Of a stretch of DNA of 64,000 bases, positions 7,732 to 58,151 are shown piece by piece. Origin of the DNA: an uncultured Patescibacteria group bacterium. GTDB taxonomy: Bacteria; Patescibacteriota; Patescibacteriia; Veblenbacterales; UBA10138. The position numbers and the translations under genes are program-made. Under the pieces are notes generated by a model. That model was not told the origin of the DNA. It saw only the letters and a program-made list of their open reading frames with translations, and did not search any database. Every line of letters starts with the position of its first letter. The stretch's first letter is position 1. The stretch spans positions 11,838 to 75,837 of the forward strand of contig CALFUV010000008.1 in the NCBI GenBank assembly GCA_937929825.1, in the 5' to 3' direction.

Positions 7732-7846
7732 AGATTAATTTAAGTATAGCTTAAACTGCTTATTGACATCTTTATTTTAAAAGCGTATTCTAGTTTACTA
7801 CATAAAAATAAATAAATTAATTAAAAATAAATAAAAGGAGCTTAAC

Positions 7847-8341
7847 ATGAAGGACATAATAGAATTCAGTATGACACCAATGCCTAAATTGGTGTATTTG
7901 TGGAAGCTTGTCTCAGGCTTTATTTGGGTAATTTTGTTGATTTTATTCAATAACACCAATCAAGATTTTAGCCCTATAATCGCGACATTGGTGGTTATGG
8001 CAGTAAGTAATTTTATGATGATTTTAGTTTTACTGGCGACTACTAGTTTATTAAAAAACATTAAATATTTTATAGAAAAACTGATGGAGATAGGAAATAT
8101 GTCGCTACTATCTTTATCGGTAGGTAGCTTAGTGTTTATAGCCATTAATTCTATAGCACCGTTAAAAGTTAGTCTTATGGTAGCCTCCATGATTACCAGT
8201 ATTGTATTTTCTAGTGTAGTAGTTTACATGAGCACTAAGCTTCTCAATGGTAATTATATAAAGGTGGGTGCAGTTAATATGTGGTCAGTAATACTTCAAG
8301 CAGCCATAATGTACGGTACTATATTTCTTTTGGGATTTTAA
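7847..8341 (+). CDS. Hypothetical polytopic membrane protein
   Basis: 164 aa, about four hydrophobic helices, A/G-rich sequence 8 nt upstream. Confidence 0.4.
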   Translation: MKDIIEFSMTPMPKLVYLWKLVSGFIWVILLILFNNTNQDFSPIIATLVVMAVSNFMMILVLLATTSLLKNIKYFIEKLMEIGNMSLLSLSVGSLVFIAINSIAPLKVSLMVASMITSIVFSSVVVYMSTKLLNGNYIKVGAVNMWSVILQAAIMYGTIFLLGF

Positions 8342-8374
8342 ACAAAATTATTAACCAATTAAACAGGAGTTAAG

Positions 8375-8620
8375 ATGAGTTCAGCAAGTTTAACAGAGGA
8401 AATGATTGACCCTCAAGCCTGGAAAGGCAAGCTTCTTTATCAATTGATGGAAGATTGCCAGGCCACAGGTGTGTGGGACGGTATTATAAGGGTTGGCTCG
8501 CCGGCAACTCATGAAGAAAAAGAACGGATGGCCAAATTTTCACCCATGCCAGAAGTTCAGGAGCAATTAGTGCTTCAACAAAAAGCCGGCGTCCCTGTTG
8601 GTGTTTTAGAAGCCCTTTAA
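8375..8620 (+). CDS. Hypothetical small soluble protein (81 aa)
   Basis: ORF preceded by GGAG; no recognisable family. Confidence 0.3.
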   Translation: MSSASLTEEMIDPQAWKGKLLYQLMEDCQATGVWDGIIRVGSPATHEEKERMAKFSPMPEVQEQLVLQQKAGVPVGVLEAL

Positions 8621-8745: not shown

Positions 8746-11673
8746 ATGCCAACAAAATCACTCAAAAATAATAATAACAGTCGTTCTACTAAATCTAAAA
8801 TAGGCAACGGTAGCAATGCCATTCCAACTGATAGTATAAGAATCCGCGGTGCGCGGGTGCATAATTTAAAGAACATTTCTTTGAATATTCCCCGGAATAA
8901 ACTGGTAGTTATTACCGGACTTTCCGGTTCAGGGAAATCTTCTTTAGCTTTTGACACCATATATGCTGAAGGACAAAGGCGTTATATAGAGTCACTCTCG
9001 GCTTACGCCAGGCAGTTTTTGGGTATGATGGATAAACCAGATGTGGATCAAATAGATGGACTTTCGCCGGCTATTTCTATTGATCAGAAGTCTACTTCAC
9101 ATAATCCACGTTCCACCGTAGGCACAGTTACGGAAATTTATGATTATTTAAGATTGCTCTACGCCCGCATTGGTATTCCTCATTGCCCTAATTGTGGCCG
9201 TGAAGTAAGCAAGCAGTCAATTGATCAGATAGTTAGTCGATTGTTGGAATTGCCTCAAGGTACAGAAATTTCTTTGCTTTCACCGGTAGTTAGAGATCAA
9301 AAAGGTGAGCATAAGAATACGGTAGCTGAACTTAAAAAGGCTGGTTATGTACGATTGCGTTTTGATGGTAAGCAAATTTCTATTGAAGAAGCCGAAGATT
9401 TGAAGGTGGATAAGCAAAAAAAACACACTGTGGAGGTAGTAGTAGATAGGTTAAAAATTAGTCACGAGTCTGACGATATAACACGTTTACATGATTCTTT
9501 GGAAACAGCCCTTGATTGGGGAGATGGTTTAGTAACAGTTTCTCGCCAAGATACCAGTGAAGATATGCTTTTTAGTCAGCATTTTTCTTGTCCGCACTGT
9601 CAGATTGATTTGCCAAATATTGAGCCGCGTAGCTTTTCTTTTAATTCTCCTCATGGCGCTTGCCCGACTTGTACTGGTTTGGGTACTAGGTTGGAAATTG
9701 ATCCGGATTTGGTAATTCCCAATAAAAAACTATCTTTAGCCGAAGGAGCTATTCGCCCCTGGAGTCGCACCAGTGCCAATCAAACTTGGTATTACCGTAT
9801 TTTAGAAGCAGTAGCGCGTGAATATGGTTTTGGTTTGAATCAGCCTGTATCAAAATTAACCCCGGCGCAATTAAAATTAGTGCTCTATGGTACAGGCAGT
9901 AAAAATTATAATGTAAATGCCGGTGCTGGCGAGGGAGGTAAGGTAAGAGCTTTTTATACAACTTATGAAGGAGTCATACCTAATTTGGAACGACGTTACC
10001 GAGAAACAGAATCAGATTATATGCGATCTGAAATTGAGCGCTATATGAGAGTTTGGCCTTGTTCGGCTTGCCAAGGCAAAAGATTAAAACCAGAAATTTT
10101 AGCTGTTACTGTAGTTGATAAAAGCATTGCTGAGGTGGTAAACATGTCTGTTACCGAAGCTGGTGAATTTTTTTACGAACTTGTAGCTCAGCACAAATTA
10201 AATGAGCGAGATATGAAAATCGCTCACACTATAATAAAAGAAATCAGGGAAAGACTTTCTTTTCTAAGTAATGTTGGTTTGGATTATTTAACATTAGATA
10301 GAGCCGCGGCCACTCTTTCCGGCGGTGAAGCTCAGCGTATTAGATTAGCTACACAAATTGGCTCATCTTTAGTAGGTGTTATTTATATTTTAGATGAACC
10401 TTCTATTGGTTTGCATCAACGCGATAACGATAAATTGATTACTACTCTTAAAAGTTTACGCGATCTGGGTAATACTGTAATAGTGGTGGAGCATGATAGA
10501 GAAACTATGCTGGCGGCAGATGAGCTAATTGATATTGGTCCCGGCGCCGGGAAACATGGGGGTGAAGTTATAGCACAAGGGTCGCCAAGTCAAGTAGCTC
10601 AAAATAACAAGTCGTTAACCGGAAAATATCTTAGCGGTCAGTTGGCAATTCCTGTGCCAGTAAAATCAAGAAAAGGTAATGGTAAGGTAATTACTATACA
10701 AGGTGCCCAAGAATTTAATTTAAAAAATATTACAGTGGATATTCCATTAGGTAAGTTTGTTTGTATCACCGGTGTTTCCGGCTCAGGTAAATCTACTCTA
10801 ATGACTGATATATTATCTCGTGCTCTAGCTCAGCATTTTTATAATGCCAAAGATCTGCCGGGTAAACACAAAGCCATTCGTGGGTTGGAACACATTGATA
10901 AAGTAATTACTATTGACCAATCACCAATCGGCCGTACGCCGCGGAGTAACCCCGCCACTTATACCGGAGTATTTACTCCTATTCGCGATCTTTTTTCACA
11001 ATTACCGGAAGCTAAAATTCGCGGTTATGATCCGGGCAGGTTTTCTTTCAATGTCAAAGGCGGACGCTGTGAGGCTTGTGAAGGTGATGGTTTAGTGCGG
11101 ATTGAAATGCATTTTTTACCCGATGTTTATGTGGAATGCGAAGAATGTCATGGCCGGCGCTACAATAGCCAAGCCTTGGAAATTCACTATAAAGGCAAAA
11201 ATATTGCCGATGTTTTACAAATGACCGCGGAAGAGGCTTTTGTTTTTTTTGAAAATGTGCCGGCAATTCAGCAAAAATTGAAAGTATTATGTGATGTGGG
11301 GTTGGGGTATATTCATTTGGGGCAAAGCGCTACCACACTTTCCGGCGGCGAGGCGCAAAGAATTAAGCTGGCTACGGAACTTTCTAGGCGTTCTACTGGA
11401 CGTACTCTTTATATTTTAGACGAACCAACTACCGGATTGCATTTTGAGGATATTAAAAGATTATTAGCCGTTTTGGCTGAATTGGTAGATAGAGGCAATA
11501 CTGTGTTGGTAATTGAACATAATTTGGATGTTATAAAGTGTGCTGATTGGATAATTGATTTGGGGCCGGAAGGCGGCAATAAAGGGGGTGAAGTGGTAGC
11601 ACTGGGCACGCCGCGAGATATAGCTAAATGCAAAAATAGTTACACCGGTCAGTGGCTGAAAAAGGTTTTGTAG
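8746..11673 (+). CDS. uvrA: Excinuclease ABC subunit A (UvrA)
   Basis: Two ABC ATPase modules ([12 protein letters not shown] and [11 protein letters not shown]), two LSGGEAQR signature motifs, zinc-finger cysteines ([28 protein letters not shown]). The track starts at TTG 8698; ATG 8746 (MPTKSLK...) is taken here, and either is possible. Confidence 0.9.
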
Positions 11674-11792
11674 TGCAATTATTTATATTTAAGATATTAA
11701 ATAAATTAATAATATAGCTATTAATAGGTTAATGTTGGATACTTGTTGGTTTTATTATTGTCAACAAGTGATTTACGGATGATAATAAAGCT

Positions 11793-13094
11793 ATGAAATG
11801 GCCGGTTAAAAAAATACAACTCAGCTTGTTCTATTTGTTGGTATTTTTTTTACCCTGGCAAACTCGGTATATTTTTTATGAACCTTTGTTAAATGGCGGG
11901 GTTTGGGAGTACGGCAAACTCAGCCTGTACAGTTGGGATATAATTTTATTCATACTTATAGTTTGGTTATGGCCCCACATTAGACAGGAATTAATAGTGT
12001 TGTTTAAACAAAGCCGCGCTTGGTCTTTTTTTATAATGCTTGCTAGCTTAGCTTTTTTAATAGGGGGCTGGGCATATGATCCAATTTTATCTTTATATTG
12101 GGGAATACGTTTATTATGCGGTGGAGCATTGTGGTTAATATTGAGAATACTTAAACCAAAGATATCATTAATATTTCTCAGTTTAGCTCTAGCTGGTACT
12201 TTTCAGGCTATTTGGGGATTAGGACAGTTTGTTGTTCAGGATATACCAGCTAATAAATGGCTAGGTGTGGCCGCTCATCCTATAACTCAAGCAGGGACTT
12301 CTGTTTTATTAAATGAAGGCGGGCGCTGGTTGCGTGCTTATGGCGGGCAGGCACACCCTAATATTTTAGGAGGATTATTGGTGATTACATCCTTAGCCAC
12401 TGTTTGGTTAATAGTAAATTTAAAAATAAAAAATTGGCATTTTATTATTAGTCAGAAAATATTAAAAAGAGGATTATGGTTTATTTATATTCTTCAGCTT
12501 GTTGGTTTGTTTTTGGCCTTTTCTCGAGCGGCCTGGCTGGCTTTTTTTATATCACTTAGTTTATTTGTTGGAAGATTTTGGAATAGTAAAATAAAAAATA
12601 ATTTATCTCAATTTATGCCCTTAGTAGCAGCAGTAATTATTTTTATAATTATGGGAACTGTTTTGTGGCAGCCAACTCGCGCCAGATTAATTGGTGACAG
12701 CGTCAGCCGGTTAGAAAAACAAGCTATTGAAGAAAGAATTAGGGGTATGACTGAAAGTAAAAGTTTATTGGGTGCTAATTGGTGGCGCGGTGTTGGTTTG
12801 GGAAATTATACCAAAGCTTTAGCAATATATTCGCCCGGTTATCAATCTTATGTTTATCAGCCAGTACATAATATTTTTTTATTGATTTTAACGGAACTTG
12901 GTTTAGTTGGCCTAGTTTTGTGGATTTTATTTATTTGGCATATATTTAAAATTTACAAGCCGGCATTAATAATATTTTTAGTGCCGATTGGAATTACTGT
13001 TTTTTTTGACCATTATTGGTGGACTTCAGCTTCTATGTGGTTATTATTTTGGCTAGTAATAGCCCTGCCAGAGGGTGAATTAGATAGCTCTTGA
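11793..13094 (+). CDS. O-antigen ligase (WaaL/Wzy_C)-like polytopic membrane protein
   Basis: 433 aa, about 10-12 TM helices, periplasmic-loop motif RAAWLAFFISLSL, and the H-N...E.G..G motif (QPVHNIFLLILTELGLVGL) characteristic of O-antigen ligase-type polymerases. Confidence 0.55.
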   Translation: MKWPVKKIQLSLFYLLVFFLPWQTRYIFYEPLLNGGVWEYGKLSLYSWDIILFILIVWLWPHIRQELIVLFKQSRAWSFFIMLASLAFLIGGWAYDPILSLYWGIRLLCGGALWLILRILKPKISLIFLSLALAGTFQAIWGLGQFVVQDIPANKWLGVAAHPITQAGTSVLLNEGGRWLRAYGGQAHPNILGGLLVITSLATVWLIVNLKIKNWHFIISQKILKRGLWFIYILQLVGLFLAFSRAAWLAFFISLSLFVGRFWNSKIKNNLSQFMPLVAAVIIFIIMGTVLWQPTRARLIGDSVSRLEKQAIEERIRGMTESKSLLGANWWRGVGLGNYTKALAIYSPGYQSYVYQPVHNIFLLILTELGLVGLVLWILFIWHIFKIYKPALIIFLVPIGITVFFDHYWWTSASMWLLFWLVIALPEGELDSS

Positions 13095-13162
13095 CAGCTT
13101 TTTAGACCTTATTTAAAATAAGGATTGGCTGTTAATTAGCACTCTCATATAAAGAGTGCTAA
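13091..13162 (+). promoter_or_regulatory. Sigma-70-type promoter (TTGACA...TATTTAAAAT) followed by a perfect CIRCE inverted repeat (HrcA operator) upstream of groES
   Basis: TTGACA at 13091-13096; CIRCE TTAGCACTC-tcatataaa-GAGTGCTAA at 13136-13162 matches the canonical TTAGCACTC-N9-GAGTGCTAA. Confidence 0.8.
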
Positions 13163-13199
13163 TTACCTCAAATTTCTAATAATTAATTATATTTAACCT

Positions 13200-13496
13200 A
13201 TGAATTTAAAACTTAAACCCTTAGGTGATCATATTGTGGTTAAAGTGGTAAAGGAGGATAAAACCACTAAGTCAGGTATTGTCTTGCCTGATACAGTAGA
13301 TAAGGAAAAGCAGGAAACCGGCGAAGTTATAGCTGTGGGGCCGGGTAAATTACTTGATAATGGCAACCGTGCTCCTATGGAAGTTAAACCGGGCGATAAG
13401 GTGCTATTTAAGAAATACTCTTTAGATGAATTTAAAATTGACGAGGAAGAGTTTGGTACTCTCCAACTTTCTGACGTCATTGCAATTATTGAATAA
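13200..13496 (+). CDS. groES: Co-chaperonin GroES
   Basis: 98 aa, LKPLGDHIVVKVVKEDKTTKSGIVLPD...GEVIAVGPG. Confidence 0.95.
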   Translation: MNLKLKPLGDHIVVKVVKEDKTTKSGIVLPDTVDKEKQETGEVIAVGPGKLLDNGNRAPMEVKPGDKVLFKKYSLDEFKIDEEEFGTLQLSDVIAIIE

Positions 13497-13507
13497 TTAA
13501 TTTTTAA

Positions 13508-15145
<1,638 letters not shown>

Positions 15146-27634: not shown

Positions 27635-28003
27635 TTGACATGTTTTTGGATTTTGCTATCATATGAATATATGTTCATATATAAACGTTGCCATTGTTCG
27701 CTTAAGCCACCAAAACAACGGATTAGTCTAGCCAAACTACAGGAGCACAGTAAGCTTTTAAAGATTATTACCGTGCCTAGGCGTATGCAACTATTGTTGC
27801 TCTTGGCACAAAAAGCCCACTGCGTTTGCGATTTGATGGAGCATACTGGCATGTCGCAAACATTGGTTTCTCATCATGTAACAGATATGGCTAAAGCTGG
27901 TTTACTTGTGGGACAGCGTAATAGTAAATATGTTGATTATCATCTTACTCCTAAAGGTAAAATAATAATTAGACATTTAATTAATTGTTTAAAAAAAATA
28001 TGA
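27635..28003 (+). CDS. ArsR/SmtB-family transcriptional regulator
   Basis: HTH LLKIITVPRRMQLLLLLAQKAHCVCDLMEHTGMSQTLVSHHVTDMAKAGLL with paired Cys (CVCD) before the recognition helix, as in metal-sensing ArsR/SmtB. Confidence 0.6.
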   Translation: MTCFWILLSYEYMFIYKRCHCSLKPPKQRISLAKLQEHSKLLKIITVPRRMQLLLLLAQKAHCVCDLMEHTGMSQTLVSHHVTDMAKAGLLVGQRNSKYVDYHLTPKGKIIIRHLINCLKKI

Positions 28004-28236
28004 AAATAACTATATTTGGCACCGGATGCCCTAAATGTATAATGTTGGAAAATTTAGCTAAACAAGCTGTAGCTGAGCTTAATTTAGCCGAAGCTACGGT
28101 TGAGCATGAATATGATATTGAACGGATTATAGAGGAAGGAATTATGAGTACGCCAGCACTCAAAATTGATGGCAGTATTATGTGCGCTGGTAGGCTGCCT
28201 AGTTTAGATGAACTTAAAAGTTGGTTAAAAAATTAA
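28000..28236 (+). CDS. Small thioredoxin-fold protein with CPKC (redox-active disulfide protein 2 / glutaredoxin-like)
   Basis: MKITIFGTGCPKC... is 78 aa. Its start overlaps the ArsR stop (ATGA). The track's earlier start at 27985 is less likely. Confidence 0.6.
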   Translation: MKITIFGTGCPKCIMLENLAKQAVAELNLAEATVEHEYDIERIIEEGIMSTPALKIDGSIMCAGRLPSLDELKSWLKN

Positions 28237-28240
28237 GAAT

Positions 28241-29359
28241 ATGACCGAACGAACTAAATTCAGCCTTATTATTGGCGTTTTTCTAGTATTGTATTTTATC
28301 CCCGTAGATTTAACGGCTTTAGGTCAGGGTTTTATTTCTGGGGTGACCTTATTGCAAGAATATGCGCGTCAACACGTGCTCACTTGTTTGGTGCCGGCCT
28401 TCTTCATTGCTGGAGCGATAGCTGTTTTTGTAAAACAGGATTGGGTATTAAAATATTTGAGCGGTAAGGATAAGCCTTGGCGAGCTTATACTTTAGCCTC
28501 TGTTTCAGGCGCTCTTTTGGCTGTATGTTCTTGCACTATTCTGCCATTGTTTGCCGGTATATGGAAACGTGGGGCCGGATTAGGGCCAGCTGTCACTTTT
28601 TTATTTTCCGGGCCGGCTATTAATGTAGGAGCTATATTTTTAACTGCTTCTGTGTTGGGTTTTCCTCTTGGCTTAGCGCGTGGTCTAGCCGCCATAGCAC
28701 TTTCAATTTTAATTGGATTTATTATGCATTGGTTTTTTAAAGGAGTTAATAGTATTAATTCTCAGCAGACGTCAGTGATAACAGGAAGTGAATTGGTGGT
28801 AGTAAAAAAATCAGCACTTATTTTATTTTTTGGATCGCTAGTAGGTATATTGGTAGTTAATGGAATATCTTTTTTGCCGGTAGCAAAATACAGCCTGATT
28901 GGTTTTTTAGTAGCTGTGGTGATATGGGTAGCAATGTTTTCTTTTTCCCGAAACATTAGGCAGCAGTGGCTGCAAGAAACTTGGAGTTTAACTAAACTTT
29001 TAGCGCCAGTATTGTTTATAGGAGTATTTATTGTGGGATTTATCATGCCATTTTTGCCCGAAAGTTTAATATCTGATTTGGTAGGTAATAGTACACTAAG
29101 CGCCAATTTTATTGCCGGAGCCTTTGGTGTTTTAATGTATTTTTCTACCTTAACTGAGGTGCCAATCGTTCAGGCTCTAATGGCTAAGGGCATGGTTGCT
29201 GGCCCGGCCCTAACCTTGCTTTTGGCTGGACCAGCGTTAAGTTTACCCAGTATGTTAGTGATAAGAAAAGTTTTAGGGAATACCAAAACAGCGGTTTATG
29301 TAGGCCTAGCTCTATTCTTTTCATCTTTTGCCGGTTTTATTTATGGATTATTAGTTTAA
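28241..29359 (+). CDS. Permease, DUF318-like (often found next to ArsR and thioredoxin-like genes)
   Basis: 372 aa, about 8-10 TM helices, two internally repeated halves with Cys (CSCTILPLFAG); recognition plus context. Confidence 0.5.
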   Translation: MTERTKFSLIIGVFLVLYFIPVDLTALGQGFISGVTLLQEYARQHVLTCLVPAFFIAGAIAVFVKQDWVLKYLSGKDKPWRAYTLASVSGALLAVCSCTILPLFAGIWKRGAGLGPAVTFLFSGPAINVGAIFLTASVLGFPLGLARGLAAIALSILIGFIMHWFFKGVNSINSQQTSVITGSELVVVKKSALILFFGSLVGILVVNGISFLPVAKYSLIGFLVAVVIWVAMFSFSRNIRQQWLQETWSLTKLLAPVLFIGVFIVGFIMPFLPESLISDLVGNSTLSANFIAGAFGVLMYFSTLTEVPIVQALMAKGMVAGPALTLLLAGPALSLPSMLVIRKVLGNTKTAVYVGLALFFSSFAGFIYGLLV

Positions 29360-29364
29360 AAAAT

Positions 29365-30690
29365 ATGCTCAAAAAAATAATATCAATAATATTTATTGCC
29401 ATTATTTTTTTTTCTCCCACCATAAACTCAGCTCAAAGTAGTGTGCCGGTCTATTTTTTTTGGGGAGATGGTTGTCCGCATTGTGTGGCGGCTAAACCTT
29501 TTTTACAGGAGTTGGAACGACAAAACCCCAGTGTTAAAGTATATTCTTTTGAAGTTTGGTACAGTACTGCTAATCGGAAATTATTAACAGATACAGCTAA
29601 AGAATTGAAAATAGATGTCAAGGGTGTGCCTTTTATTGTAGTGGGACAGGAATATGTAACTGGTTTTTATAATGCTGAAACCACAGGCAGACAAATACAA
29701 ACCTATGTGGAAAGATGTATGGCGGCTGGTTGTGTAGATATTGTTGGTCCACTGGCAGGACTTACGTCAGTCAAACCATTAGCACCAGAACCACCTATTG
29801 GTTCGGCTGATACTAAACCACAACCGGTAGAGCCGGTAGACACATTTATAGAAATAAATCCGCAGCCAGAGGAATCGGAATTATCAATTAAGACAGAGGA
29901 TCAGAGTAATATCGCAATAGAAGAAGATCTAAGTCCGATTCCGGAAAGTTTACGTTTACCTTTAGTGGGTGAGATTAAAACAAAACACTTATCATTGCCA
30001 TTACTAACCATTATTATTGCCGCGCTTGATGGTTTTAATCCATGTGCCATGTGGGTTTTGGTTTTTTTAATTGGTTTATTGTTGGGTGTAACTGATGTTA
30101 AACGGCGTTGGTTATTAGGCAGTACTTTCATAGTAGCCTCAGCCGCGGTCTATTTTGTTTTCCTGGCTGCCTGGCTTAACCTGATTCTTTTTATTGGCGC
30201 TATTTTAATAATAAGAATCATAATTGGTTTGGTAGCCATTGGTGGTGGAGCTTATAGTTTGCGGGAATATTTCCTAAAGCGGGATGAAACTTGCAAAGTA
30301 ACCGCGCCAGATAAGCGCCGGCGGGTTTTTGATCGCCTAAAGGCCATCAGCCAAGAAAAAAGATTATGGTTAGCTCTAGGTGGTATTATTCTCTTAGCTT
30401 TTGCCGTTAATTTGGTAGAGCTTATTTGTTCGGCTGGATTGCCGGCGGTTTATACACAGATATTAGCTTTGTCGCCCATGCCTCATTGGCAATATTATCT
30501 TTATCTTCTTCTCTACATATTTATTTTTATGCTGGATGATATGATAGTGTTTGCTGTGGCTATGGTCACTCTACAAATTACCGGTTTGACTACTAAATAT
30601 ACCCGTTGGGCTCATCTAATTGGTGGTATACTCATGGTTATAGTTGGCCTGCTACTCATATTTAAGCCTCAATGGTTGATGTTTGGTTAG
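29365..30690 (+). CDS. Thioredoxin/DsbA-like domain (CPHC) fused to a DsbD/CcdA-like two-cysteine membrane domain (ScsB/DsbD-like)
   Basis: Signal/anchor, then FFWGDGCPHCVAAKPF (Trx fold), a linker, and TM helices carrying GFNPCAMWV and ICSAGLP, which correspond to the CcdA cysteines. Confidence 0.5.
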   Translation: MLKKIISIIFIAIIFFSPTINSAQSSVPVYFFWGDGCPHCVAAKPFLQELERQNPSVKVYSFEVWYSTANRKLLTDTAKELKIDVKGVPFIVVGQEYVTGFYNAETTGRQIQTYVERCMAAGCVDIVGPLAGLTSVKPLAPEPPIGSADTKPQPVEPVDTFIEINPQPEESELSIKTEDQSNIAIEEDLSPIPESLRLPLVGEIKTKHLSLPLLTIIIAALDGFNPCAMWVLVFLIGLLLGVTDVKRRWLLGSTFIVASAAVYFVFLAAWLNLILFIGAILIIRIIIGLVAIGGGAYSLREYFLKRDETCKVTAPDKRRRVFDRLKAISQEKRLWLALGGIILLAFAVNLVELICSAGLPAVYTQILALSPMPHWQYYLYLLLYIFIFMLDDMIVFAVAMVTLQITGLTTKYTRWAHLIGGILMVIVGLLLIFKPQWLMFG

Positions 30691-30706
30691 CTGATTACTT
30701 AATAAA

Positions 30707-31165
30707 ATGTCAATAAATTTTATAAGACACAATAAATTAATATTATTATTTTTAGCATTATTTTTATTAACAGGCTGTAGTCAAGTTCCTGTTGAAAACA
30801 GGGAAAATTTTTCAAGAGCAAACCAGCCACCTGATAAAATTGTGGTAGTACATTTTCATGGCACCCAGCAATGCTGGTCGTGTATTACCGTCGGCAAGTA
30901 CGCTCTTAAAACAATTAAAGAAAAATTTTCCGAAGAATACTCTAATGGTTTAATAGAGTTTAAGGATATAAATGGTGAATTACCAGCTAATAGGGATATA
31001 GTCATTAAATATCAAGCCCGTGGTTCTTCTTTATATGTGAACACAATAATCGCTGGCCAAGATAATATAAAAGAAGATGTTACTGTTTGGCGGCTAGTAA
31101 ATAATGAAAACCAATTTATTAGTTATTTTGAAGGTGTGCTGAAAAATTTATTAGCTAAAAAATAA
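30707..31165 (+). CDS. Lipoprotein with CxxC motif (putative extracytoplasmic thiol-disulfide oxidoreductase, TlpA/ScsD-like)
   Basis: Lipobox LLTGC, then VVHFHGTQQCWSCITVG. Confidence 0.45.
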   Translation: MSINFIRHNKLILLFLALFLLTGCSQVPVENRENFSRANQPPDKIVVVHFHGTQQCWSCITVGKYALKTIKEKFSEEYSNGLIEFKDINGELPANRDIVIKYQARGSSLYVNTIIAGQDNIKEDVTVWRLVNNENQFISYFEGVLKNLLAKK

Positions 31166-31902
31166 TGTTTGATTATATTAATTATTTTATAGACAATTAC
31201 AACATTCCGGTACTAACCGCATTTTTATTGGGAATTTTAACTTCTATTGGTCCGTGTCCACTGGCAACGAATATTACAGCGATCGCTTATATTTCTAGAG
31301 ATATTAAGTCACCCAAATACATAATTATATCTGGTCTTTTTTATATTTTAGGCAGAGGCATAAGCTATGCTTTATTAGCTGCTCTTATTTACTTCGGACT
31401 TTCGTCATTTCAAATTTCAAGAATTTTTCAAGGCTGGGGTGATAAAGTTTTGGGCCCAGTACTGATTTTAATTGGTCTTATGATGTTTGGTGTTATCAAA
31501 ATCAATTTAAAAAATAACAGCCAAACAATTGAAAAAATAAAATTGTGGCTGTCGGACAAAGGATATTTAGGTTCGTTATCTTTGGGTATGCTATTTGCTC
31601 TCGCTTTCTGCCCATACAGTGGTGTATTGTTTTTTGGTGCATTTATGCCTTTGGTTTTAATTACTGCTGGGGGTCCAGCCCTTTCGTTATTTTTTGCTTT
31701 AGGTACCGGCCTGCCAGTTATAATTTTTTCTTTTTTATTAGCTTTTTCTTTGCACAAAGTTAGTAAAATATTTAAAGCTGTTCAAAAAATAGAAAAGATT
31801 ATGCGTTATACTGTAGCGACAGTTTTTGTTGGTGTAGGTTTTTATTATTTAGGCTATTTTATTAGCTATTTATTAAACCGATTTATCGGGCAAGATTATT
31901 AA
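31165..31902 (+). CDS. CcdA/DsbD-family transmembrane disulfide-electron-transfer protein (paralog 1)
   Basis: Six TM helices with GILTSIGPCPLATN (TM1) and ALAFCPYSG (TM4). Start overlaps the upstream stop (ATGT). Confidence 0.55.
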   Translation: MFDYINYFIDNYNIPVLTAFLLGILTSIGPCPLATNITAIAYISRDIKSPKYIIISGLFYILGRGISYALLAALIYFGLSSFQISRIFQGWGDKVLGPVLILIGLMMFGVIKINLKNNSQTIEKIKLWLSDKGYLGSLSLGMLFALAFCPYSGVLFFGAFMPLVLITAGGPALSLFFALGTGLPVIIFSFLLAFSLHKVSKIFKAVQKIEKIMRYTVATVFVGVGFYYLGYFISYLLNRFIGQDY

Positions 31903-36955: not shown

Positions 36956-37738
36956 GTGTATAATAAAGTCATGGATTTTGGTTTGAACGTTTCCACTTTA
37001 ATTTTACCAGCATTTTTTGCCGGTATTCTAACTTTTTTGGCACCCTGTACTCTGCCTCTTATCCCCGGTTATTTGGCTTTTATCAGCGGGGTGTCTTTGC
37101 GCGAGTTACAGCAAAAAAATTCAGTTAGTTTACGTCGAAAGGTTTTTTTTAATGGATTATGGTACGTAGTTGGATTTAGTTTAGTTTTCGTTATTTTGGG
37201 TGGAGTTTTTGGTTCTCTTGGTTTGTTATTGGCGCCGTATCGATTACTCTTGGGCAGGTTAGGAGGTATAATAGTGATTTTTTTTGGTCTTTATTTAATT
37301 GGCGTGATTCGTTTGCCTGTACTTTTAGGTGAACATAAATTGCACTTAGAGCGTTTTTTACGTCCGGGCTATAAAACTTCTTCATTTCTGTTCGGCGCCA
37401 CTTTTGCTTTTGGTTGGACGCCTTGCATTGGGCCAATTTTAGCCTCCATTTTGTTATTAGCTTCTTATTCTGCTACTGCCGCCAAAGGTGCTTTTTTGTT
37501 GTTGGTTTTTGCCGCTGGATTAGCCGTGCCGTTTTTATTGTTGGCTTGGGGCGTAGGTGCGGTGTCGCGTTATCTTGTTAAGCTTGGGCCTTATTTAAAA
37601 TTATTATCTGTTATTGGCGGCATTTTACTGGTTTTAATAGGTTTTCTTTTACTGAGTAATAAGTTTGGTTGGTGGTTGCAATGGGCTTATAAAATTTTTG
37701 GTTTTTTAAATTACCAAGTTTTGTTAAAGTATTTATAA
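36956..37738 (+). CDS. ccdA: Cytochrome c-type biogenesis protein CcdA / DsbD transmembrane domain (paralog 2)
   Basis: FFAGILTFLAPCTLPLIPGY (TM1) and GWTPCIGPIL (TM4), the canonical CcdA motifs. Confidence 0.8.
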   Translation: MYNKVMDFGLNVSTLILPAFFAGILTFLAPCTLPLIPGYLAFISGVSLRELQQKNSVSLRRKVFFNGLWYVVGFSLVFVILGGVFGSLGLLLAPYRLLLGRLGGIIVIFFGLYLIGVIRLPVLLGEHKLHLERFLRPGYKTSSFLFGATFAFGWTPCIGPILASILLLASYSATAAKGAFLLLVFAAGLAVPFLLLAWGVGAVSRYLVKLGPYLKLLSVIGGILLVLIGFLLLSNKFGWWLQWAYKIFGFLNYQVLLKYL

Positions 37739-40102: not shown

Positions 40103-40125
40103 CATTCGTACGAATAGTAGAATGA
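40103..40125 (+). promoter_or_regulatory. Operator/promoter motif copy 1: palindrome TTCGTACGAA plus TAGAAT -10-like box, 20 nt upstream of the ArsR-like gene
   Basis: CATTCGTACGAATAGTAGAATGA; nearly identical to copies at 40447 and 40856. Confidence 0.45.
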
Positions 40126-40144: not shown

Positions 40145-40420
40145 GTGAACTTATATTTTATGTCCGGACCAGAGTACACTTTCAAGGCCTTTGCCAATAA
40201 GCGCCGCTTAGCTATTTTAAGATATTTAATGACACACCCCGAGGCATCAGTAGGCGGGCTGGCTGATGCTATCAAATTATCTTTCCGTTCAACTTCTAAA
40301 CATTTGGCGATCTTGGTTGTAGCTGGTGTGGTGGAGTATGAGCAAAGAGGCAAGCAGATTTTTTACAAACTCGTTTCTTCTCCTCCTGCCCTGATTCGTA
40401 AACTTCTTACCCTTATCTAA
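40145..40420 (+). CDS. ArsR/SmtB-family winged-helix transcriptional regulator (small, 86-91 aa)
   Basis: FKAFANKRRLAILRYLMTHPEASVGGLADAIKLSFRSTSKHLAILVVAGVVEYEQRGKQIFYKL, the ArsR HTH pattern (RL.IL..L...V..L......S...S.HL..L...G.V...R.G....Y.L). Confidence 0.6.
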   Translation: MNLYFMSGPEYTFKAFANKRRLAILRYLMTHPEASVGGLADAIKLSFRSTSKHLAILVVAGVVEYEQRGKQIFYKLVSSPPALIRKLLTLI

Positions 40421-40446: not shown

Positions 40447-40469
40447 CATTCGTACGAATGGTAGAATAA
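40447..40469 (+). promoter_or_regulatory. Operator/promoter motif copy 2 (TTCGTACGAA-TGG-TAGAAT), downstream of the ArsR-like gene and about 25 nt before a terminator
   Basis: CATTCGTACGAATGGTAGAATAA; an extended -10-like TGgTAGAAT. Confidence 0.45.
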
Positions 40470-40487: not shown

Positions 40488-40524
40488 ATAAAAAAGGATG
40501 GCGTTACCATCCTTTAATTTTTTT
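40488..40524. terminator. Bidirectional intrinsic terminator (also ends the minus-strand gene 40533..40832)
   Basis: aataaaaaa-GGATGG-cgtta-CCATCC-tttaattttttt. Confidence 0.65.
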
Positions 40525-40855: not shown

Positions 40856-40878
40856 AATTCGCGCGAATGGTAGAATAA
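40856..40878 (+). promoter_or_regulatory. Operator/promoter motif copy 3 (TTCGCGCGAA-TGG-TAGAAT), about 110 nt upstream of the Q-rich secreted protein gene
   Basis: AATTCGCGCGAATGGTAGAATAA. The palindrome core has covaried (TA to CG) while keeping dyad symmetry. Confidence 0.45.
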
Positions 40879-40986: not shown

Positions 40987-41745
40987 ATGTCAGAAGTTAG
41001 GAAGGATTTGTTTATTGGTGTCGGTTTTTTAATGGCCGCCATGGTTTTAGTATCTTTTGCTATTGCCGTTCAGGTGCAGGCAAGAGAAGGTGAGGATGAT
41101 TCAATTTCATCCGATACTTCTTTTGGTTTGAAAGTAAGGGGGGATGGCACGGTTGACGATTCGCAGCCAGGAATTGGCGCTGCTGTGCAAGCACAAGCAC
41201 AAGTTCAAAACAGGGGCGAAGAAACTCAGGTTCAGGCACAAGTTCAAGCTCAGGAGCAAACCAATATGCCAGATTCTGCTCCTGGCCAAGTTAATAAAGA
41301 GAATAAAAAAATAGGTCAGGACAAGGCGGCTGAGCATCGCAGCGCAGTGGCAAATTTTGTACAAAGCTTGCTTCAAGTAGCTGATAGCAAGCCTGGGGGT
41401 ATTGGTGAGCAAGTTCGTAATATAGCCCAGCAGCAAAATCAATCAGCTGAAGTTATGATTCAAGCTATGGAAAAAGTACAAACCAGAAGCAAGATAAGAA
41501 CATTTTTATTTGGTTCAGATTATAAAAATTTAGGCACTTTGAGAAGTGAAATGGTCAAAACCAGAAATAGATTGGAGCAGTTGAATAGATTGATAGTTAA
41601 TATAGATAATGAAGCTGATAAAATTGAGTTGCAGAATCAGATCCAAAATCTTATTCAGGAGCAGGAAAGTATTGATAATTTTATAAAAGTTCAGGAAATT
41701 AAGATTAGTTTATTTGGTTGGATAAAGAAACTTTTCAGTAATTAG
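40987..41745 (+). CDS. Secreted or anchored protein with Q/A/V-rich low-complexity repeats (QAQAQVQ) and a C-terminal coiled coil
   Basis: N-terminal TM/signal (LFIGVGFLMAAMVLVSFAIAV), repeats AAVQAQAQVQNRGEETQVQAQVQAQEQ. Confidence 0.4.
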   Translation: MSEVRKDLFIGVGFLMAAMVLVSFAIAVQVQAREGEDDSISSDTSFGLKVRGDGTVDDSQPGIGAAVQAQAQVQNRGEETQVQAQVQAQEQTNMPDSAPGQVNKENKKIGQDKAAEHRSAVANFVQSLLQVADSKPGGIGEQVRNIAQQQNQSAEVMIQAMEKVQTRSKIRTFLFGSDYKNLGTLRSEMVKTRNRLEQLNRLIVNIDNEADKIELQNQIQNLIQEQESIDNFIKVQEIKISLFGWIKKLFSN

Positions 41746-41934: not shown

Positions 41935-42429
41935 ATGCAAAAAAAATATTTTATCTTTGTATTTTTGATTGTAGTGGTGATTATTGGGGTAATTTTTATT
42001 TTCAATAAACCCGCACTAGAGCCGGCGACAGTTTCAACGACAGTTATACCAACTGGCAGTAGCCAAGATGAAGTGCCAACCAGCACCATGCCCACATTAG
42101 AGGAGAATGAAACTCCAGAAATGCTAGTGGGTGAAGTGAAAGAATTCACCATGACCTCTTATTATTCACCAGAGACTAAGCGACCATATTTTAGTTTGAA
42201 TGAGATGGTGGTAAATCAGGGAGACACGGTACGCATCAGGGTTACCAATACCTTTGGTAATCATGATATTAAAATAGACGAGTATAATGTGTTTGCCGAA
42301 ACGCCCTTAAACCAGGAAGTGGTGGTGGAATTTGTGGCGGATAAGGTTGGCGATTTTGTTTATTACTGTTCTAAACCCGGGCATCGTGCGGCCGGGCAGT
42401 GGGGAACTCTACGTGTATTGAAACAATAA
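41935..42429 (+). CDS. Membrane-anchored cupredoxin-domain protein (type-1 blue-copper-like; ligands His...Cys-X4-His-X4-Gln)
   Basis: N-terminal TM anchor and Thr/Ser/Pro-rich linker, then a beta-rich domain with GNHDIKID (upstream His) and YYCSKPGHRAAGQWG (Cys, His, Gln in the axial-ligand position, stellacyanin-like). Confidence 0.5.
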   Translation: MQKKYFIFVFLIVVVIIGVIFIFNKPALEPATVSTTVIPTGSSQDEVPTSTMPTLEENETPEMLVGEVKEFTMTSYYSPETKRPYFSLNEMVVNQGDTVRIRVTNTFGNHDIKIDEYNVFAETPLNQEVVVEFVADKVGDFVYYCSKPGHRAAGQWGTLRVLKQ

Positions 42430-56749: not shown

Positions 56750-57151
56750 ATGAGTCTAAAAATTCCATTTTATCAGGATGCCGGTTTATTAATGATAAGA
56801 CTTGGTTTGGGAATAGTTTTTATAGCTCATGGTTGGAGTAAGTGGCAGTCTTTAGTAGAAACAAACCTATTTTTTTCTAATCTTGCTTTGCCAGTTTGGA
56901 CTGTATATTTAGTTATATTTTTTGAATTAATTGGTGGGTTGGCAGTAGTGTTTGGTTGGTTAGCCAGATTTTTTAGTTTTGGTTTGGTAATCATAATGAT
57001 AGTTGCCATAGCTAAAGTAAAATTGACAAGCGGATTTATTGGTGGTTATGAATTTGATTTTGTTTTAATGCTTATGGCTCTAAGTATTGTTTTAGCTGGC
57101 TCTGGTAGGTATAAAATGCGGCTGGCGAATTGGGGAAATAATTCTTATTAG
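56750..57151 (+). CDS. DoxX-family membrane protein
   Basis: LMIRLGLGIVFIAHGWSKW...; four TM helices, 133 aa. Confidence 0.65.
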   Translation: MSLKIPFYQDAGLLMIRLGLGIVFIAHGWSKWQSLVETNLFFSNLALPVWTVYLVIFFELIGGLAVVFGWLARFFSFGLVIIMIVAIAKVKLTSGFIGGYEFDFVLMLMALSIVLAGSGRYKMRLANWGNNSY

Positions 57152-57152
57152 A

Positions 57153-58151
57153 ATGTCTGAGCACAAAACCAATATACAGAATATTTTTGATACTATTATA
57201 ATTGGCGGCGGAGCTGCTGGTTTGTCAGCCGCCATTTATGCTGAAAGATATTTAATGAAGACTTTAGTACTGGAAGGCAGGGAGCCGGGCGGAGAAACCG
57301 CTACTGCTTGGATAATTGAAAATTACCCCGGCATCCCCAGTATTGATGGTTATGATTTAATTAAAGCTATGAAAGCTCAAGCTGAAGGTCCGTTAACTAC
57401 TTTTGTGTCTGATTATGCTAGTGAAGTATTATTGCAGGATCATTGTTTTACAGTTAAATCGGAATCCGGTCAAGATTTTTGGGGTAAAACTATAATATTT
57501 GCTCATGGTTCTCGTCGTCGGCGTCTAGGATTGCCTAATGAAAAAAGATTATTAGGTCATGGGGTTTCTTATTGCATAACCTGTGATGCGCCTCTTTATA
57601 AAGATAAGGTTGTAGCTATTGTGGGCGGAGGAGATGCTTCGGTTAAAGGAGCTTGTTTAGCCTCTCAATATTCTGCCAAAATATATTTCATTACCAGAGA
57701 AAAAAATATTAAGGCTGAGCCAGCTAATATGGAAATATTTAATAAAAAGAATAATATTGAAATTATTTATGAAACAGAAGTTAAAGAATTATTAGGCAAA
57801 GAATATTTAAGCGGCATTGTTTTAAATCGTTCTTATAAGGGTAGCGAAAAACTAGAAGTACAGGGTATTTTTATTGAAATTGGATCTGAACCTAATTCCT
57901 CTTTACCTAAAAGTTTGGGAGTAAAAGTTGATGAAAGTGGTTATATAGAAGTTGATGCCATGATGCGAACCAGTGTTCATGGTGTTTATGCCGCCGGCGA
58001 CATTACCAATGCTACAGGAAGTTTTAAGCAGGATATCGTGGCTGCAGCCCAAGGCGCTATTGCGGCCACTTCAGCTTATCGGGATTTAGGTTTACACGGC
58101 AATCAGGCTTGTTTACATCATGCCATTATACCTAAATATTTTAAGTCATGA
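57153..58151 (+). CDS. trxB: Thioredoxin-disulfide reductase-like FAD/NAD(P)-dependent oxidoreductase (TrxB family)
   Basis: FAD motif DTIIIGGGAAGLSAAIYA; redox-active CxxC in SYCITCDA; NAD(P) motif VAIVGGGDA; C-terminal GVYAAGD. Confidence 0.65.
   Translation: MSEHKTNIQNIFDTIIIGGGAAGLSAAIYAERYLMKTLVLEGREPGGETATAWIIENYPGIPSIDGYDLIKAMKAQAEGPLTTFVSDYASEVLLQDHCFTVKSESGQDFWGKTIIFAHGSRRRRLGLPNEKRLLGHGVSYCITCDAPLYKDKVVAIVGGGDASVKGACLASQYSAKIYFITREKNIKAEPANMEIFNKKNNIEIIYETEVKELLGKEYLSGIVLNRSYKGSEKLEVQGIFIEIGSEPNSSLPKSLGVKVDESGYIEVDAMMRTSVHGVYAAGDITNATGSFKQDIVAAAQGAIAATSAYRDLGLHGNQACLHHAIIPKYFKS

Follow-up and report, generated by a model that had tools for sequence, protein, structure and literature searches.

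The gene at 41935..42429 (+ strand, stop codon included) raises the question of what a membrane-anchored cupredoxin could do in a bacterium that was not expected to respire. It lies in the window, that is, the whole stretch of 64 kb of DNA analyzed in this work, and both premises of the question, as they were put forward in the earlier note, proved to be sound. The organism type, CPR/Patescibacteria, was confirmed via the RpoD encoded in the window, which displayed 90% identity to a Candidatus Veblenbacteria protein and 84% identity to a Kerfeldbacteria protein. Genes identical to those of the window are also present in a Logan assembly of run ERR9287890. The claim that no other electron-transport genes accompany the cupredoxin was upheld by scanning about 50 ORFs of the window with Pfam, none of which was respiratory. 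Oxidase subunit I and the NosZ propeller were not found in the window, no DsbB, NirK or copper ATPase was detected by Pfam scans and searches of the 64 kb, and a six-frame search of the same 64 kb revealed no second cupredoxin.

Between the upstream stop codon and the ATG at 41935 there is no other in-frame start, and the initial methionine (M1) is nearly invariant among homologues. The 164-aa product consists of three parts. Residues 1-23 (41935..42003, + strand) comprise the basic N-terminus MQKK and a hydrophobic helix, placed at residues 3-23 in the AlphaFold2 model; as read from the sequence, this helix possesses neither a lipobox Cys nor an Ala-x-Ala site and is predicted to be an uncleaved membrane anchor, while according to the positive-inside rule the cupredoxin domain would be located outside the cytoplasmic membrane. 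Residues 24-66 or thereabouts (42004..42132, + strand) form a disordered Ser/Thr/Pro/Glu-rich tether, PALEPATVSTTVIPTGSSQDEVPTSTMPTLEENETPE, which was modelled with low confidence (pLDDT 54-77) and no secondary structure, and the sequence of which varies with no conservation across an alignment of 73 homologues (A1). Residues 67-164 (42133..42426, + strand) constitute the cupredoxin domain, a Greek-key beta-sandwich with eight to nine strands at 68-162 and a pLDDT of ~98. The model bears out the initial description of the protein as a TM anchor, a Ser/Thr/Pro-rich linker and a beta-rich domain, and the structure prediction proposed there as a check gave a confidently modelled cupredoxin fold.

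The ORF is far more than a chance one, because it has 195 homologues at E <= 1e-3 (the nearest share 72-75% identity with it), 6732 representative clusters were obtained in a profile search, and residues H110, C145 and H150 are invariant across the 73 homologues of A1; identity to the window protein ranges from 39 to 78% across A1 and the genome loci. The Pfam profile search, also suggested earlier, did match cupredoxin families, but at 13.4-18.7 bits, all below the gathering cutoffs of 20.4-27, and the NCBIfam scan gave sub-threshold matches only; for most homologues, matches to PF13473 and/or PF00127 are precomputed. The family assignment therefore rests on the PDB sequence search, the structure prediction and the homologues.

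The C-terminus of the protein, YYCSKPGHRAAGQWG, contains C145-x4-H150-x4-Q155. By phmmer the protein was aligned to the cupredoxin domain (T1CuN) of the three-domain NirK of Hyphomicrobium denitrificans (6tfd/2dv6, E = 3e-15), with YYCSKPGHRAAGQ opposite YYCSLPGHRQAGM and NHD opposite QHD, so that H110, C145, H150 and Q155 correspond to His80, Cys117, His122 and Met127 of T1CuN, respectively. H110 (codon cat, 42262..42264, + strand), the His within GNHDIKID and the predicted N-terminal His ligand, aligns with His80 of Hd1NES1NiR. C145 (codon tgt, 42367..42369, + strand), the predicted thiolate ligand and the only Cys of the protein, and H150 (codon cat, 42382..42384, + strand), the predicted C-terminal His ligand, align with Cys117 and His122 of 6tfd. 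His80 and His122 of the Hyphomicrobium nitrite reductase were named as T1CuN ligands (PMC7201279). The canonical axial Met is absent, its position (the Met of YYCSLPGHRQAGM in 6tfd and 2dv6) being taken by Q155 (codon CAG, 42397..42399, + strand). This alignment supports the type-1 ligand set with Gln for Met that had been proposed for the protein, with one correction: the distance from the upstream His to the Cys, given as about 45 residues, is actually 35 (H110 to C145). Judged by these ligands, the window protein is most probably a mononuclear type-1-like ("blue" or "green") protein that would bind copper. The Hyphomicrobium T1CuN (2DV6, 6TFD, 6TFO) possesses an axial Met and is fused to the NirK core, whereas the window protein has an axial Gln, stands alone with its 164 aa, not being fused to any two-domain NirK core, and is anchored by a helix and tether of its own.

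Some homologues bear in JGI the names "heme/copper-type cytochrome/quinol oxidase subunit 2" and "nitrous oxide reductase", and the NosZ C-terminal domain was matched weakly in NCBIfam and PDB. These matches evoke a CuA fragment of cytochrome oxidase subunit II or nitrous-oxide reductase, a possibility by which the initial interpretation was to be refuted. CuA needs two bridging Cys (CxxxCxxxH), while the family has a single invariant Cys in a C-x4-H-x4-Q/H loop, with Gln at its end in the window protein; because the protein has only one Cys, a CuA-type fragment is ruled out with near certainty. The "nosZ-like" CuA proteins of DPANN (PMC10936187) constitute a two-Cys family distinct from the cupredoxin clade.

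An axial Gln, corresponding by alignment to Q155, is characteristic of stellacyanin and plant phytocyanins. The Cys-x4-His-x4-Gln spacing matches that of cucumber stellacyanin, the ligands of which we take to be His46/Cys89/His94/Gln99, and stellacyanins, like the window protein, are tethered at the cell surface. They are, however, glycoproteins of plants in which a conserved disulfide adjoins the copper site, whereas the window protein has one Cys, and since no phytocyanin match to it was obtained in Pfam, NCBIfam and PDB searches, its axial Gln appears to be convergent. Among bacterial cupredoxins, auracyanin D of Chloroflexus shares the axial Gln with the window protein. Auracyanins as a group are membrane-associated, and the window protein is weakly similar to auracyanins A and B (E = 3e-4 and 0.04). 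Auracyanin D differs in its azurin-like fold and in its host, which is phototrophic, respires and possesses quinones as well as alternative complex III; the copper site of auracyanin D is of the green, type-1.5 kind and has the lowest known potential, +90 mV (PMC10804444). By analogy with stellacyanin and auracyanin D, the reduction potential of the window protein should be low, roughly +90 to +250 mV. In nitrosocyanin (red copper, 1IBY) an equatorial His is replaced by Glu and water is bound (PMC10804444). A site of this type, with Glu for the N-terminal His and with an axial His, was ruled out, as the window clade keeps an invariant N-terminal His and the axial residue of the window protein is Gln, not His. 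The axial-His members of the clade keep both equatorial His as well, unlike nitrosocyanin, the one natural axial-His cupredoxin named in PMC10804444.

The clade of Gln/His-axial cupredoxins of CPR and DPANN was defined in the present analysis with the window protein as the query. It is recognized by the N-terminal anchor, the variable tether and the C-terminal motif [FY]YC-x4-H[RK]-x3-[QH]-W-G-x-L-x-V, all of which are present in the window protein. The axial residue was Gln in 88, His in 30 and Met in 1 of the 120 closest clusters; the 81 genomic copies (80 related loci and the window) comprised 55 with Gln, 26 with His and none with Met, and an axial Met was seen only among more distant representatives. 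Members of the clade are spread over many CPR phyla and are also present in some archaea of the DPANN group, and the clade is largely confined to these bacteria and archaea. During a spot check of depositor labels, the contig of locus L065 was found to carry aRF1 and is truly archaeal, while a sigma-70 gene was found in locus L006, labelled "archaeal" but probably of bacterial origin, which makes the archaeal share of the family uncertain. The blue-copper protein, called unexpected in the earlier note, is thus no peculiarity of one genome, since its family is widespread in CPR and DPANN. Single-domain cupredoxins of CPR were already noted as presumed electron donors of NirK, and both papers call the supplier of their electrons unknown (PMC5581439; PMC12931201). 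These "plastocyanin-like" cupredoxins originate from the same organism group and involve the same idea of an extracytoplasmic copper carrier (Danczak et al. 2017; Adv Sci 2025), and they may well belong to the same family as the window protein. Neither work mentions Gln or His as the axial ligand, an occurrence in DPANN or the NOX-like partner considered below; CPR cupredoxins as such are on record in the literature, and no publication on the Gln/His clade or on this partner came to our notice.

The partner became apparent from the genomic context of the relatives. Directly downstream of the cupredoxin gene in 19 of the 74 genome loci with enough downstream DNA to judge, there is a gene for a protein with the Pfam domains Ferric_reduct, FAD_binding_8 and NAD_binding_1; in 16 loci the two genes share a strand and are separated by -9 to +20 nt. 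The reverse test started from 33 distinct NOX-like genes of metagenomes, 24 of which had a Q/H cupredoxin directly upstream, and the pair occurs both on the archaeal aRF1 contig (L065) and on CPR contigs. The best solved relative of this NOX-like neighbour is SpNOX of Streptococcus pneumoniae (8qta/8qq7, E = 8e-30), the match covering the dehydrogenase domain together with the final TM helices. SpNOX (8QQ7, 8QTA) is thus closest to the partner gene, not to the window gene, and shares with the partner the domain order, i.e., ferric-reductase transmembrane, FAD and NAD(P)H domains. The cupredoxin-linked core NOX-like family differs from SpNOX in that Gln replaces the first haem-ligand His of TM3 (FQRKF) and in its pairing with a copper protein. 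SpNOX itself reduces oxygen, and we know of no copper-protein partner for it; considering the FQRKF substitution, the partner may not behave like SpNOX. As CPR and DPANN, so far as we are aware, generally lack haem synthesis, the partner would also need scavenged haem. The NOX-like profile gave no match in a six-frame search of the 64-kb window, and the NOX-like gene is not adjacent to the cupredoxin gene in the closest relatives, namely the Kerfeldbacteria/Magasanikbacteria group, L081 and L083, the last of which shows synteny to the window.

Together, a cupredoxin and an enzyme of the ferric-reductase type could also shuttle iron at the cell surface between Fe(III) and Fe(II), as part of an iron uptake of the EfeO or FtrB kind. 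The NOX-like partner does fall within the ferric-reductase domain family, FtrB and EfeO are structural neighbours of the window protein, and one homologue is labelled as an "EfeO-type cupredoxin-like domain" protein. Such a function seems very unlikely to us, as the closest solved relative of the partner is an oxygen-reducing NOX and, among the recurrent neighbour families identified (most neighbour families being unannotated), there is no iron permease. Moreover, the EfeO/FtrB-type domains known to us are devoid of a complete Cys/His/His site.

In our opinion, the tethered Gln-axial copper protein is, with somewhat better than even probability, an extracytoplasmic one-electron carrier, which in relatives is fed by the SpNOX-like enzyme. 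The helix and the flexible tether would hold the cupredoxin on the outer face of the CPR cytoplasmic membrane, and its copper, held by H110, C145, H150 and, in the axial position, Q155 in place of Met, would transfer single electrons outside the cytoplasm in a short chain independent of both quinone and the bc1 complex. The SpNOX-like membrane enzyme encoded immediately downstream would supply these electrons in many relatives, and we infer the direction of electron flow to be from cytoplasmic NAD(P)H through FAD and the transmembrane haem to Cu(II). NirK where present, thiol/disulfide (Dsb) proteins and oxygen species are candidate acceptors of electrons from the cupredoxin. The partner gene is absent from the window, where the cupredoxin gene instead stands after c40, a gene for a secreted protein, the putative promoter of which carries an ArsR-type operator. 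The earlier preference for copper handling or an extracellular redox relay over respiration is thereby retained in its second half: the relay fits, because the relatives share operons with the SpNOX-like NAD(P)H reductase and with Dsb/thioredoxin genes, and copper handling appears to be the weaker of the two roles.

Concerning the acceptors, the published proposals suggest a narrower function, namely that of a dedicated donor to a NirK encoded elsewhere in the genome and performing one-step nitrite reduction. The best sequence and structure match of the window protein is indeed a cupredoxin domain naturally fused to NirK, a cupredoxin was present in every NirK-bearing CPR bin (Danczak et al., PMC5581439), and a cupredoxin donor to NirK is also proposed in the 2025 survey (PMC12931201). 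Against this, the family is apparently far more widespread in CPR than NirK, which was recorded in 4 of 34 CPR genomes (PMC5581439), and no second cupredoxin-type domain was found beside the gene in the window, the 80 genome loci or the 66 metagenome loci, save for a few weak matches, with a profile that may miss NirK. We regard a function confined to NirK as improbable. NirK as one possible acceptor is compatible with the role of a carrier.

The genes found upstream of the cupredoxin in relatives offer another interpretation. Genes for DsbA-like, Trx-like and DsbB proteins precede it directly and on the same strand in five genome loci (L013, L019, L022, L023, L051) and in many metagenome loci, the recurrent order being DsbA-like, Trx-like, DsbB, cupredoxin, NOX-like, and in one relative (P0150) the cupredoxin is fused to a thioredoxin/AhpC-like domain. 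Both the operons and the fusion count in favour of the cupredoxin being the oxidant of a quinone-independent disulfide system, in which reduced DsbB or a Trx-like protein would donate electrons to the Cu(II)-cupredoxin, replacing ubiquinone/menaquinone, and the latter would be re-oxidized by oxygen species, possibly by superoxide from the NOX-like enzyme. The genomes of Patescibacteria and DPANN are devoid of a complete electron-transport chain and, to our knowledge, these organisms generally lack quinone synthesis, which would agree with such a replacement; a Gln-axial site near +100 mV would also resemble ubiquinone in its potential, judging from PMC10804444. However, Dsb/Trx genes occur within 4 kb of the cupredoxin in only 10 of the 80 genome loci, with none such in the window, and an NAD(P)H-fed reductase from the same operon would hold the copper in its reduced state, contrary to the role of an oxidant. 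The re-oxidation step is speculative, and we are aware of no direct electron transfer from DsbB to copper. Considering these facts, we find the disulfide-oxidant function unlikely.

The carrier function fed by the SpNOX-like enzyme may be part of a broader scheme, which we put forward tentatively, as a possible rather than a probable one. The Gln/His cupredoxins could be the copper hub of a new extracytoplasmic redox module, quinone- and bc1-free and probably passed between CPR and DPANN by gene transfer, in which the SpNOX-like enzyme with its altered haem site would move NAD(P)H electrons across the membrane to the copper protein, and the latter would also exchange electrons with DsbB/DsbA/thioredoxin-type proteins. 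Having Gln or His in the axial position, and never Met with its susceptibility to oxidation, would be an adaptation to a low working potential and to a cell surface rich in reactive oxygen. The window gene would be a stand-alone member, with its partner encoded elsewhere or supplied by the host. If this is true, ultra-small cells regarded as "non-respiring" could dump reducing equivalents, drive disulfide formation and feed NirK-type enzymes. Orphan copper proteins and NirK recur in the CPR papers without an electron source, and coupling to an NAD(P)H-haem reductase offers a testable answer; being a two-protein system, the cupredoxin and NOX-like pair is small enough for reconstitution. To copper biochemistry the clade also offers a natural set of variants: its site is constant except for the axial position, which may be occupied by either Gln or His. 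For the window itself the gain is modest, as it contributes a well-supported member of the clade, the partner of which is not in view.

The neighbours of the window gene were considered in the light of the same loci. Those named in the earlier note as its context fared differently: the ArsR-like regulator recurs near the cupredoxin, its family being found in 7 other loci, while the DoxX-TrxB pair (56750-58151, 14 kb from the cupredoxin gene) and the two DsbD-like genes (31165-31902 and 36956-37738, 4-10 kb from it) are not conserved neighbours. A functional link of the cupredoxin to the DoxX-TrxB or DsbD-like genes found no support in conservation, since their families do not recur near it in other loci. 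The gene following the cupredoxin encodes a PilB-type ATPase (at 42706).

The regulator (40145..40420, + strand) is a 91-aa ArsR/SmtB-type HTH protein (Pfam HTH_5; NF033788, 66.9 bits at a cutoff of 55) with no Cys, a single His and no obvious metal site. It thus gives no evidence for copper sensing, and this function was discarded as unsupported. The absence of Cys and of a metal-site motif also counts against copper homeostasis, in which the protein would serve as a surface copper buffer or chaperone, or as a Cu(I) oxidizer like CopI or CupA. CupA-type Cu(I) chaperones have two Cys and Met in the loop, whereas the loop of the window protein, CSKPGHRAAGQ, contains one Cys and no Met, and the CupA-type structures 2mry/4f2e match it only at E = 0.5. 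Its His/Cys/His/axial set is of the rigid electron-transfer type and not of the Cys/Met type that makes up the Cu(I) sites of CupA; it has no His/Met-rich tract, Pfam scans of the 64-kb window detected no copper transporter, and the much commoner partner in the relatives is a redox enzyme. A function in copper homeostasis is, in our estimation, quite improbable.

Upstream of the cupredoxin gene in the window lies c40 (40987..41745, + strand), the product of which is a coiled-coil protein of 252 aa, either secreted or anchored. Although adjacent, c40 was missing from the neighbours listed earlier, and it recurs beside the cupredoxin family elsewhere: in L032 and L038 a member of its family immediately precedes the cupredoxin gene, and in L039 and L055 one lies close to it. 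No match to the c40 protein was obtained in Pfam, NCBIfam or PDB. The 189-nt gap between c40 and the cupredoxin gene was searched for a terminator-like site and none was found; the two genes may be co-transcribed. An operator/promoter-like element, sought directly upstream of the cupredoxin gene and not found there, is present in three copies on the + strand, namely upstream of the regulator gene (ATTCGTACGAATAGTAGAAT, 40104..40123), at 40448..40467, where it is followed by a terminator-like hairpin at 40493-40515, and upstream of the c40-cupredoxin gene pair (ATTCGCGCGAATGGTAGAAT, 40857..40876). These are the only three matches to the element in the 64 kb, where 0.26 would be expected by chance.

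The cupredoxin gene at window 41935-42429 (+) is a clean open reading frame of 164 aa, and the AlphaFold2 model of its product, built from 73 homologues, agrees with the anchor helix, Ser/Thr/Pro-rich linker and beta domain that had been read from the sequence: a helix at residues 3-23 is followed by a Ser/Thr/Pro/Glu-rich low-confidence segment up to about residue 66 and by a nine-strand beta domain at residues 68-162 (pLDDT of about 98). Given the basic N-terminus and the single helix, the domain would sit outside the membrane. The C-terminus, FVYYCSKPGHRAAGQWGTLRVL, contains the Cys-X4-His-X4-Gln described in the earlier note (C145-x4-H150-x4-Q155); the upstream His that the note placed in GNHDIKID exists as H110, the spacing to C145 being 35 residues and not about 45. 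C145 is the sole Cys of the protein, and H110, C145 and H150 are invariant in the 73-sequence alignment. The Pfam and NCBIfam searches gave sub-threshold matches only (Cu-oxidase_2, Copper-bind, Cupredoxin_1, NosZ C-terminal domain, plastocyanin and nitrosocyanin). The top matches in the PDB sequence search were 6tfd and 2dv6 (E = 3e-15 and 3e-14), in which the matched region is the extra N-terminal cupredoxin domain of three-domain nitrite reductases from Hyphomicrobium denitrificans; 6tfo, 6tfd and 2dv6 were also top-ranked by Foldseek for the model. In the PDB sequence search NHDIKIDEY of the window protein was aligned to QHDAVIDQY, and YYCSKPGHRAAGQWG to YYCSLPGHRQAGMQG. The ligand histidines of the T1CuN site in 6tfd/6tfo are His80 and His122 (PMC7201279), and residue counting along the alignment to 6tfd/2dv6 equates His80 with H110, Cys117 with C145, His122 with H150 and the axial Met127 with Q155. 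The window protein has a cupredoxin fold, and its ligands are homologous to those of a documented type-1 site with Gln in the axial position, which upholds the proposed type-1 ligand set with Gln replacing Met. By homology to the solved sites the ligands would cluster in space, and the predicted site would bind one copper.

A CuA centre is excluded by the single Cys, which likewise refutes the reading of the domain as a CuA fragment and makes it practically impossible. The ‘nosZ-like’ CuA proteins of DPANN (PMC10936187), which have two Cys, belong to another family. Stellacyanins and auracyanin D also have an axial Gln, and the chemistry is therefore a variation on a known type. Stellacyanin has a potential of about +180 to +260 mV. 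For auracyanin D, with its axial Gln, the value is +90 mV (PMC10804444); by analogy with these two, the reduction potential of the window protein would be low for a cupredoxin.

The window cupredoxin is no oddity, being a member of a large family: the word-indexed search returned 195 relatives, and the profile search of 1.84 billion cluster representatives gave 6732 matches at E ≤ 1e-3 and 240 at E ≤ 1e-30. The axial residue in the 120 closest clusters is Gln in 88, His in 30 and Met in one, with the motif absent in one. In the representative clusters, Gln or His occupies this position in about the first 60 single-domain matches; Met is limited to more distant matches, namely a clade with CSVGNHRAMGM and multi-domain proteins. 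In the 81 genomic copies (80 species-representative genomes and the window) Gln occurs 55 times, His 26 times and Met not at all; the clade is Gln/His-only at the axial position. Neighbour-joining ordering of the domains implies several Gln/His switches, each direct replacement of Gln by His taking one nucleotide change, and one two-cupredoxin protein (P0121) combines a Gln-axial with a His-axial domain. The axial-His sites of the clade retain both equatorial His ligands and thereby differ from nitrosocyanin, the one natural axial-His cupredoxin named in the literature consulted (PMC10804444). Dienelactone-hydrolase and cupredoxin domains are fused in L004 (9143-10288), L021, L049, P0131 and P0173.

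According to the record titles, cupredoxin loci occur in many CPR phyla (among them Kerfeld-, Magasanik-, Moran-, Lloyd-, Nomura-, Falkow-, Nealson- and Staskawiczbacteria, WWE3, Saccharibacteria, Peribacteria, Absconditabacterales) and in DPANN (Woese-, Pace-, Nano- and Aenigmatarchaeota, Iainarchaeum), and bacterial and archaeal members interleave in the neighbour-joining ordering. Locus L065, labelled Pacearchaeota, is truly archaeal, because a gene for aRF1/eRF1 with an intein (LAGLIDADG; 11672-14077 (-)) directly follows its NOX-like gene; L006, labelled Aenigmatarchaeota, is probably a mis-binned bacterial contig, since it carries a sigma-70 gene (2899-5199 (+)). Judging from these spot-checks, the spread across bacteria and archaea is real, its extent being uncertain. 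An in-frame TGA stands at the invariant Gly96 of the family (TVKK-TGA-ELVR) in L060 (10091-10093) and L075 (3781-3783), one of these contigs being labelled Absconditabacterales and the other Peribacteria, and Trp replaces a family-invariant Gly in the library proteins P0171, P0173, P0177 and P0190. Both features fit the use of genetic code 25, in which UGA means Gly, by those lineages, and mistranslation of the database entries.

When every ORF located up to 7 kb from the cupredoxin was clustered across the 81 loci, one strongly recurrent neighbour emerged, a protein of about 435 aa encoded directly downstream on the same strand, with Ferric_reduct (transmembrane), FAD_binding_8 and NAD_binding_1 domains, whose closest solved relative is the bacterial NADPH oxidase SpNOX (8qta, 8qq7; E = 8e-30). 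Of the 74 loci whose downstream DNA extends for at least 1.3 kb, 19 have this NOX-like gene there, and 16 loci show a spacing of -9 to +20 nt between the two genes. In the reverse test, metagenome contigs were scanned with an alignment of the NOX-like proteins, and a cupredoxin (14 Gln, 10 His) was located directly upstream of 24 of the 33 (73%) distinct NOX-like genes having at least 500 nt upstream. The linkage of the two genes, verified in both directions, is tight in many relatives.

Transfer of single electrons from cytoplasmic NAD(P)H via FAD and haem to the outer face is established for enzymes of the NOX/FRE family. The obvious acceptor would be a tethered copper protein that takes one electron and whose gene is 0-20 nt away, and we infer that in these relatives the cupredoxin receives electrons from the NOX-like enzyme. 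In the proposal of Danczak et al. (PMC5581439), electrons arrive ‘by an unknown means’ at a CPR cupredoxin and move on from there to NirK; the transfer proposed here, if true, would answer this stated gap in electron supply. The compatible suggestion that the cupredoxin is a dedicated NirK donor appears unlikely, as no NirK was seen near any copy. According to a preprint, 1427 of 7645 CPR genomes encode the ferric-reductase domain, and the linkage described in it is to cytochrome b5 genes. Text searches of the literature found no paper pairing this domain with a cupredoxin in CPR or DPANN, and neither a large CPR/DPANN clade that never has Met and alternates Gln and His nor an operon partnership of a cupredoxin with an SpNOX-like enzyme and Dsb proteins was found described in the searchable literature.

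In a subset of loci (L013, L019, L022, L023 and L051; metagenome loci L086, L092, L098, L105, L110 and L111) one strand encodes a DsbA-like protein (Thioredoxin_4/DSBA), a membrane-anchored thioredoxin-like protein (CPHC), DsbB, the cupredoxin and the NOX-like enzyme, and the opposite strand often an HxlR-type regulator. Organisms with this cluster are generally held to be without quinones, and the presence of Dsb proteins in them raises the question of what re-oxidises DsbB. That the cupredoxin itself is the oxidant of a quinone-free DsbB pathway, as the Dsb gene order and a fusion of a cupredoxin with a thioredoxin/AhpC-like domain (P0150) might suggest, is doubtful, since Dsb genes are infrequent (10 of 80 loci) and a reductase is present in the same operon. 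The ligand set is of the electron-transfer type, which makes a role in copper homeostasis quite unlikely despite a CopA-type ATPase near the cupredoxin in seven loci and CupA among the structural neighbours. Iron handling of the EfeO/FtrB kind is very improbable, no iron permease having been identified among the recurrent neighbours.

As to the NOX-like partner preferred here as the electron source, its core family (16 loci including L022:10405-11718, L019:10376-11674 and L051:4742-6076; L086-L138) has FQRKF where NOX/FRE proteins have F-H-R, so that the first TM3 haem ligand is Gln, with H103, H159 and H172 (L022 numbering) invariant; for the metagenome set the frequency of FQRKF is circular, since the scan pattern included this motif. 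The distant members L008, L054 and L072 retain the His. The haem content and behaviour of the core family may differ from those of SpNOX; haem synthesis is typically absent in CPR and DPANN. About 1.3 kb upstream of the cupredoxin/NOX-like pair of L065, on the opposite strand, lies a gene (6188-8596 (-)) for an 803-aa fusion of hybrid-cluster protein (Prismane), flavin reductase and rubredoxin, which possibly points to a connection with nitrosative or oxidative stress.

The window copy is a partner-less member of the family: NOX-like, DsbB, DsbA-like and Trx-like profiles had no match in the 64-kb window, and an adjacent NOX-like gene is absent in the nearest relatives, P0005 (L083) and P0007 (L081), and in the tree neighbours L001, L003, L004, L024 and L042. 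L083 shares synteny with the window (MgtE, an ECF sigma factor, Germane, BacA). In Magasanikbacteria L003, L024 and L042, whose cupredoxins are close relatives of the window protein, sufC, sufB and sufD immediately follow the cupredoxin gene, and a cysteine desulfurase is encoded farther along; the arrangement could reflect a metal-cofactor neighbourhood or synteny by coincidence.

Immediately upstream of the window cupredoxin, a gene at 40987-41745 encodes a secreted or anchored 252-aa protein with Gln/Ala/Val-rich repeats and a C-terminal coiled coil; it had no Pfam, NCBIfam or PDB match, and members of its family directly precede the cupredoxin in L032 and L038 and are also present in L039 and L055. 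The family of the preceding ArsR/SmtB-type regulator (40145-40420) is found near the cupredoxin in seven other loci; with no Cys and one His, its sequence gives no hint of metal sensing. The 20-nt element ATTCGnnCGAATnGTAGAAT, a 12-bp palindrome followed by a -10-like TAGAAT, has three exact copies, the only matches in 64 kb (0.26 expected by chance): before the regulator gene (40104-40123), after it (40448-40467; then a terminator-like hairpin at 40493-40515 and no obvious gene) and before the secreted-protein gene (40857-40876). Because no copy lies directly upstream of the cupredoxin gene and the 189-nt gap after the secreted-protein gene contains no terminator-like site, the cupredoxin may be the second gene of an operator-controlled pair.

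For the RpoD encoded in the window (37% G+C), identity is 90% with a protein from Candidatus Veblenbacteria and 84% with one from Kerfeldbacteria. Pfam scans, run on about 50 ORFs, recognized DNA repair genes, GroEL, PEP synthase/PPDK, primase, sigma factors, glycosyltransferases, MgtE, ArsR with an ArsP permease, two DsbD-like membrane proteins, PgpA, UppP, a type IV pilus cluster, glycogen enzymes and a DoxX-TrxB-like pair. These scans and the cupredoxin search detected no respiratory complexes, second cupredoxin, copper ATPase or NirK in the 64 kb, and the earlier statement that nothing else there suggests an electron-transport chain was correct. The DoxX (133 aa) and thioredoxin-reductase-like flavoprotein (332 aa) genes overlap stop to start (56750-58151), and the pair, listed as a neighbour in the earlier note, is not conserved next to the cupredoxin family. 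At 27635-31902, genes for a second ArsR-type regulator and an ArsP-type permease are followed by those for two proteins of 441 and 152 aa with no assignment and for a DsbD_2 membrane protein, and a separate DsbD_TM/CcdA-like gene is located at 36956-37738; these genes constitute an extracytoplasmic thiol-reducing set.
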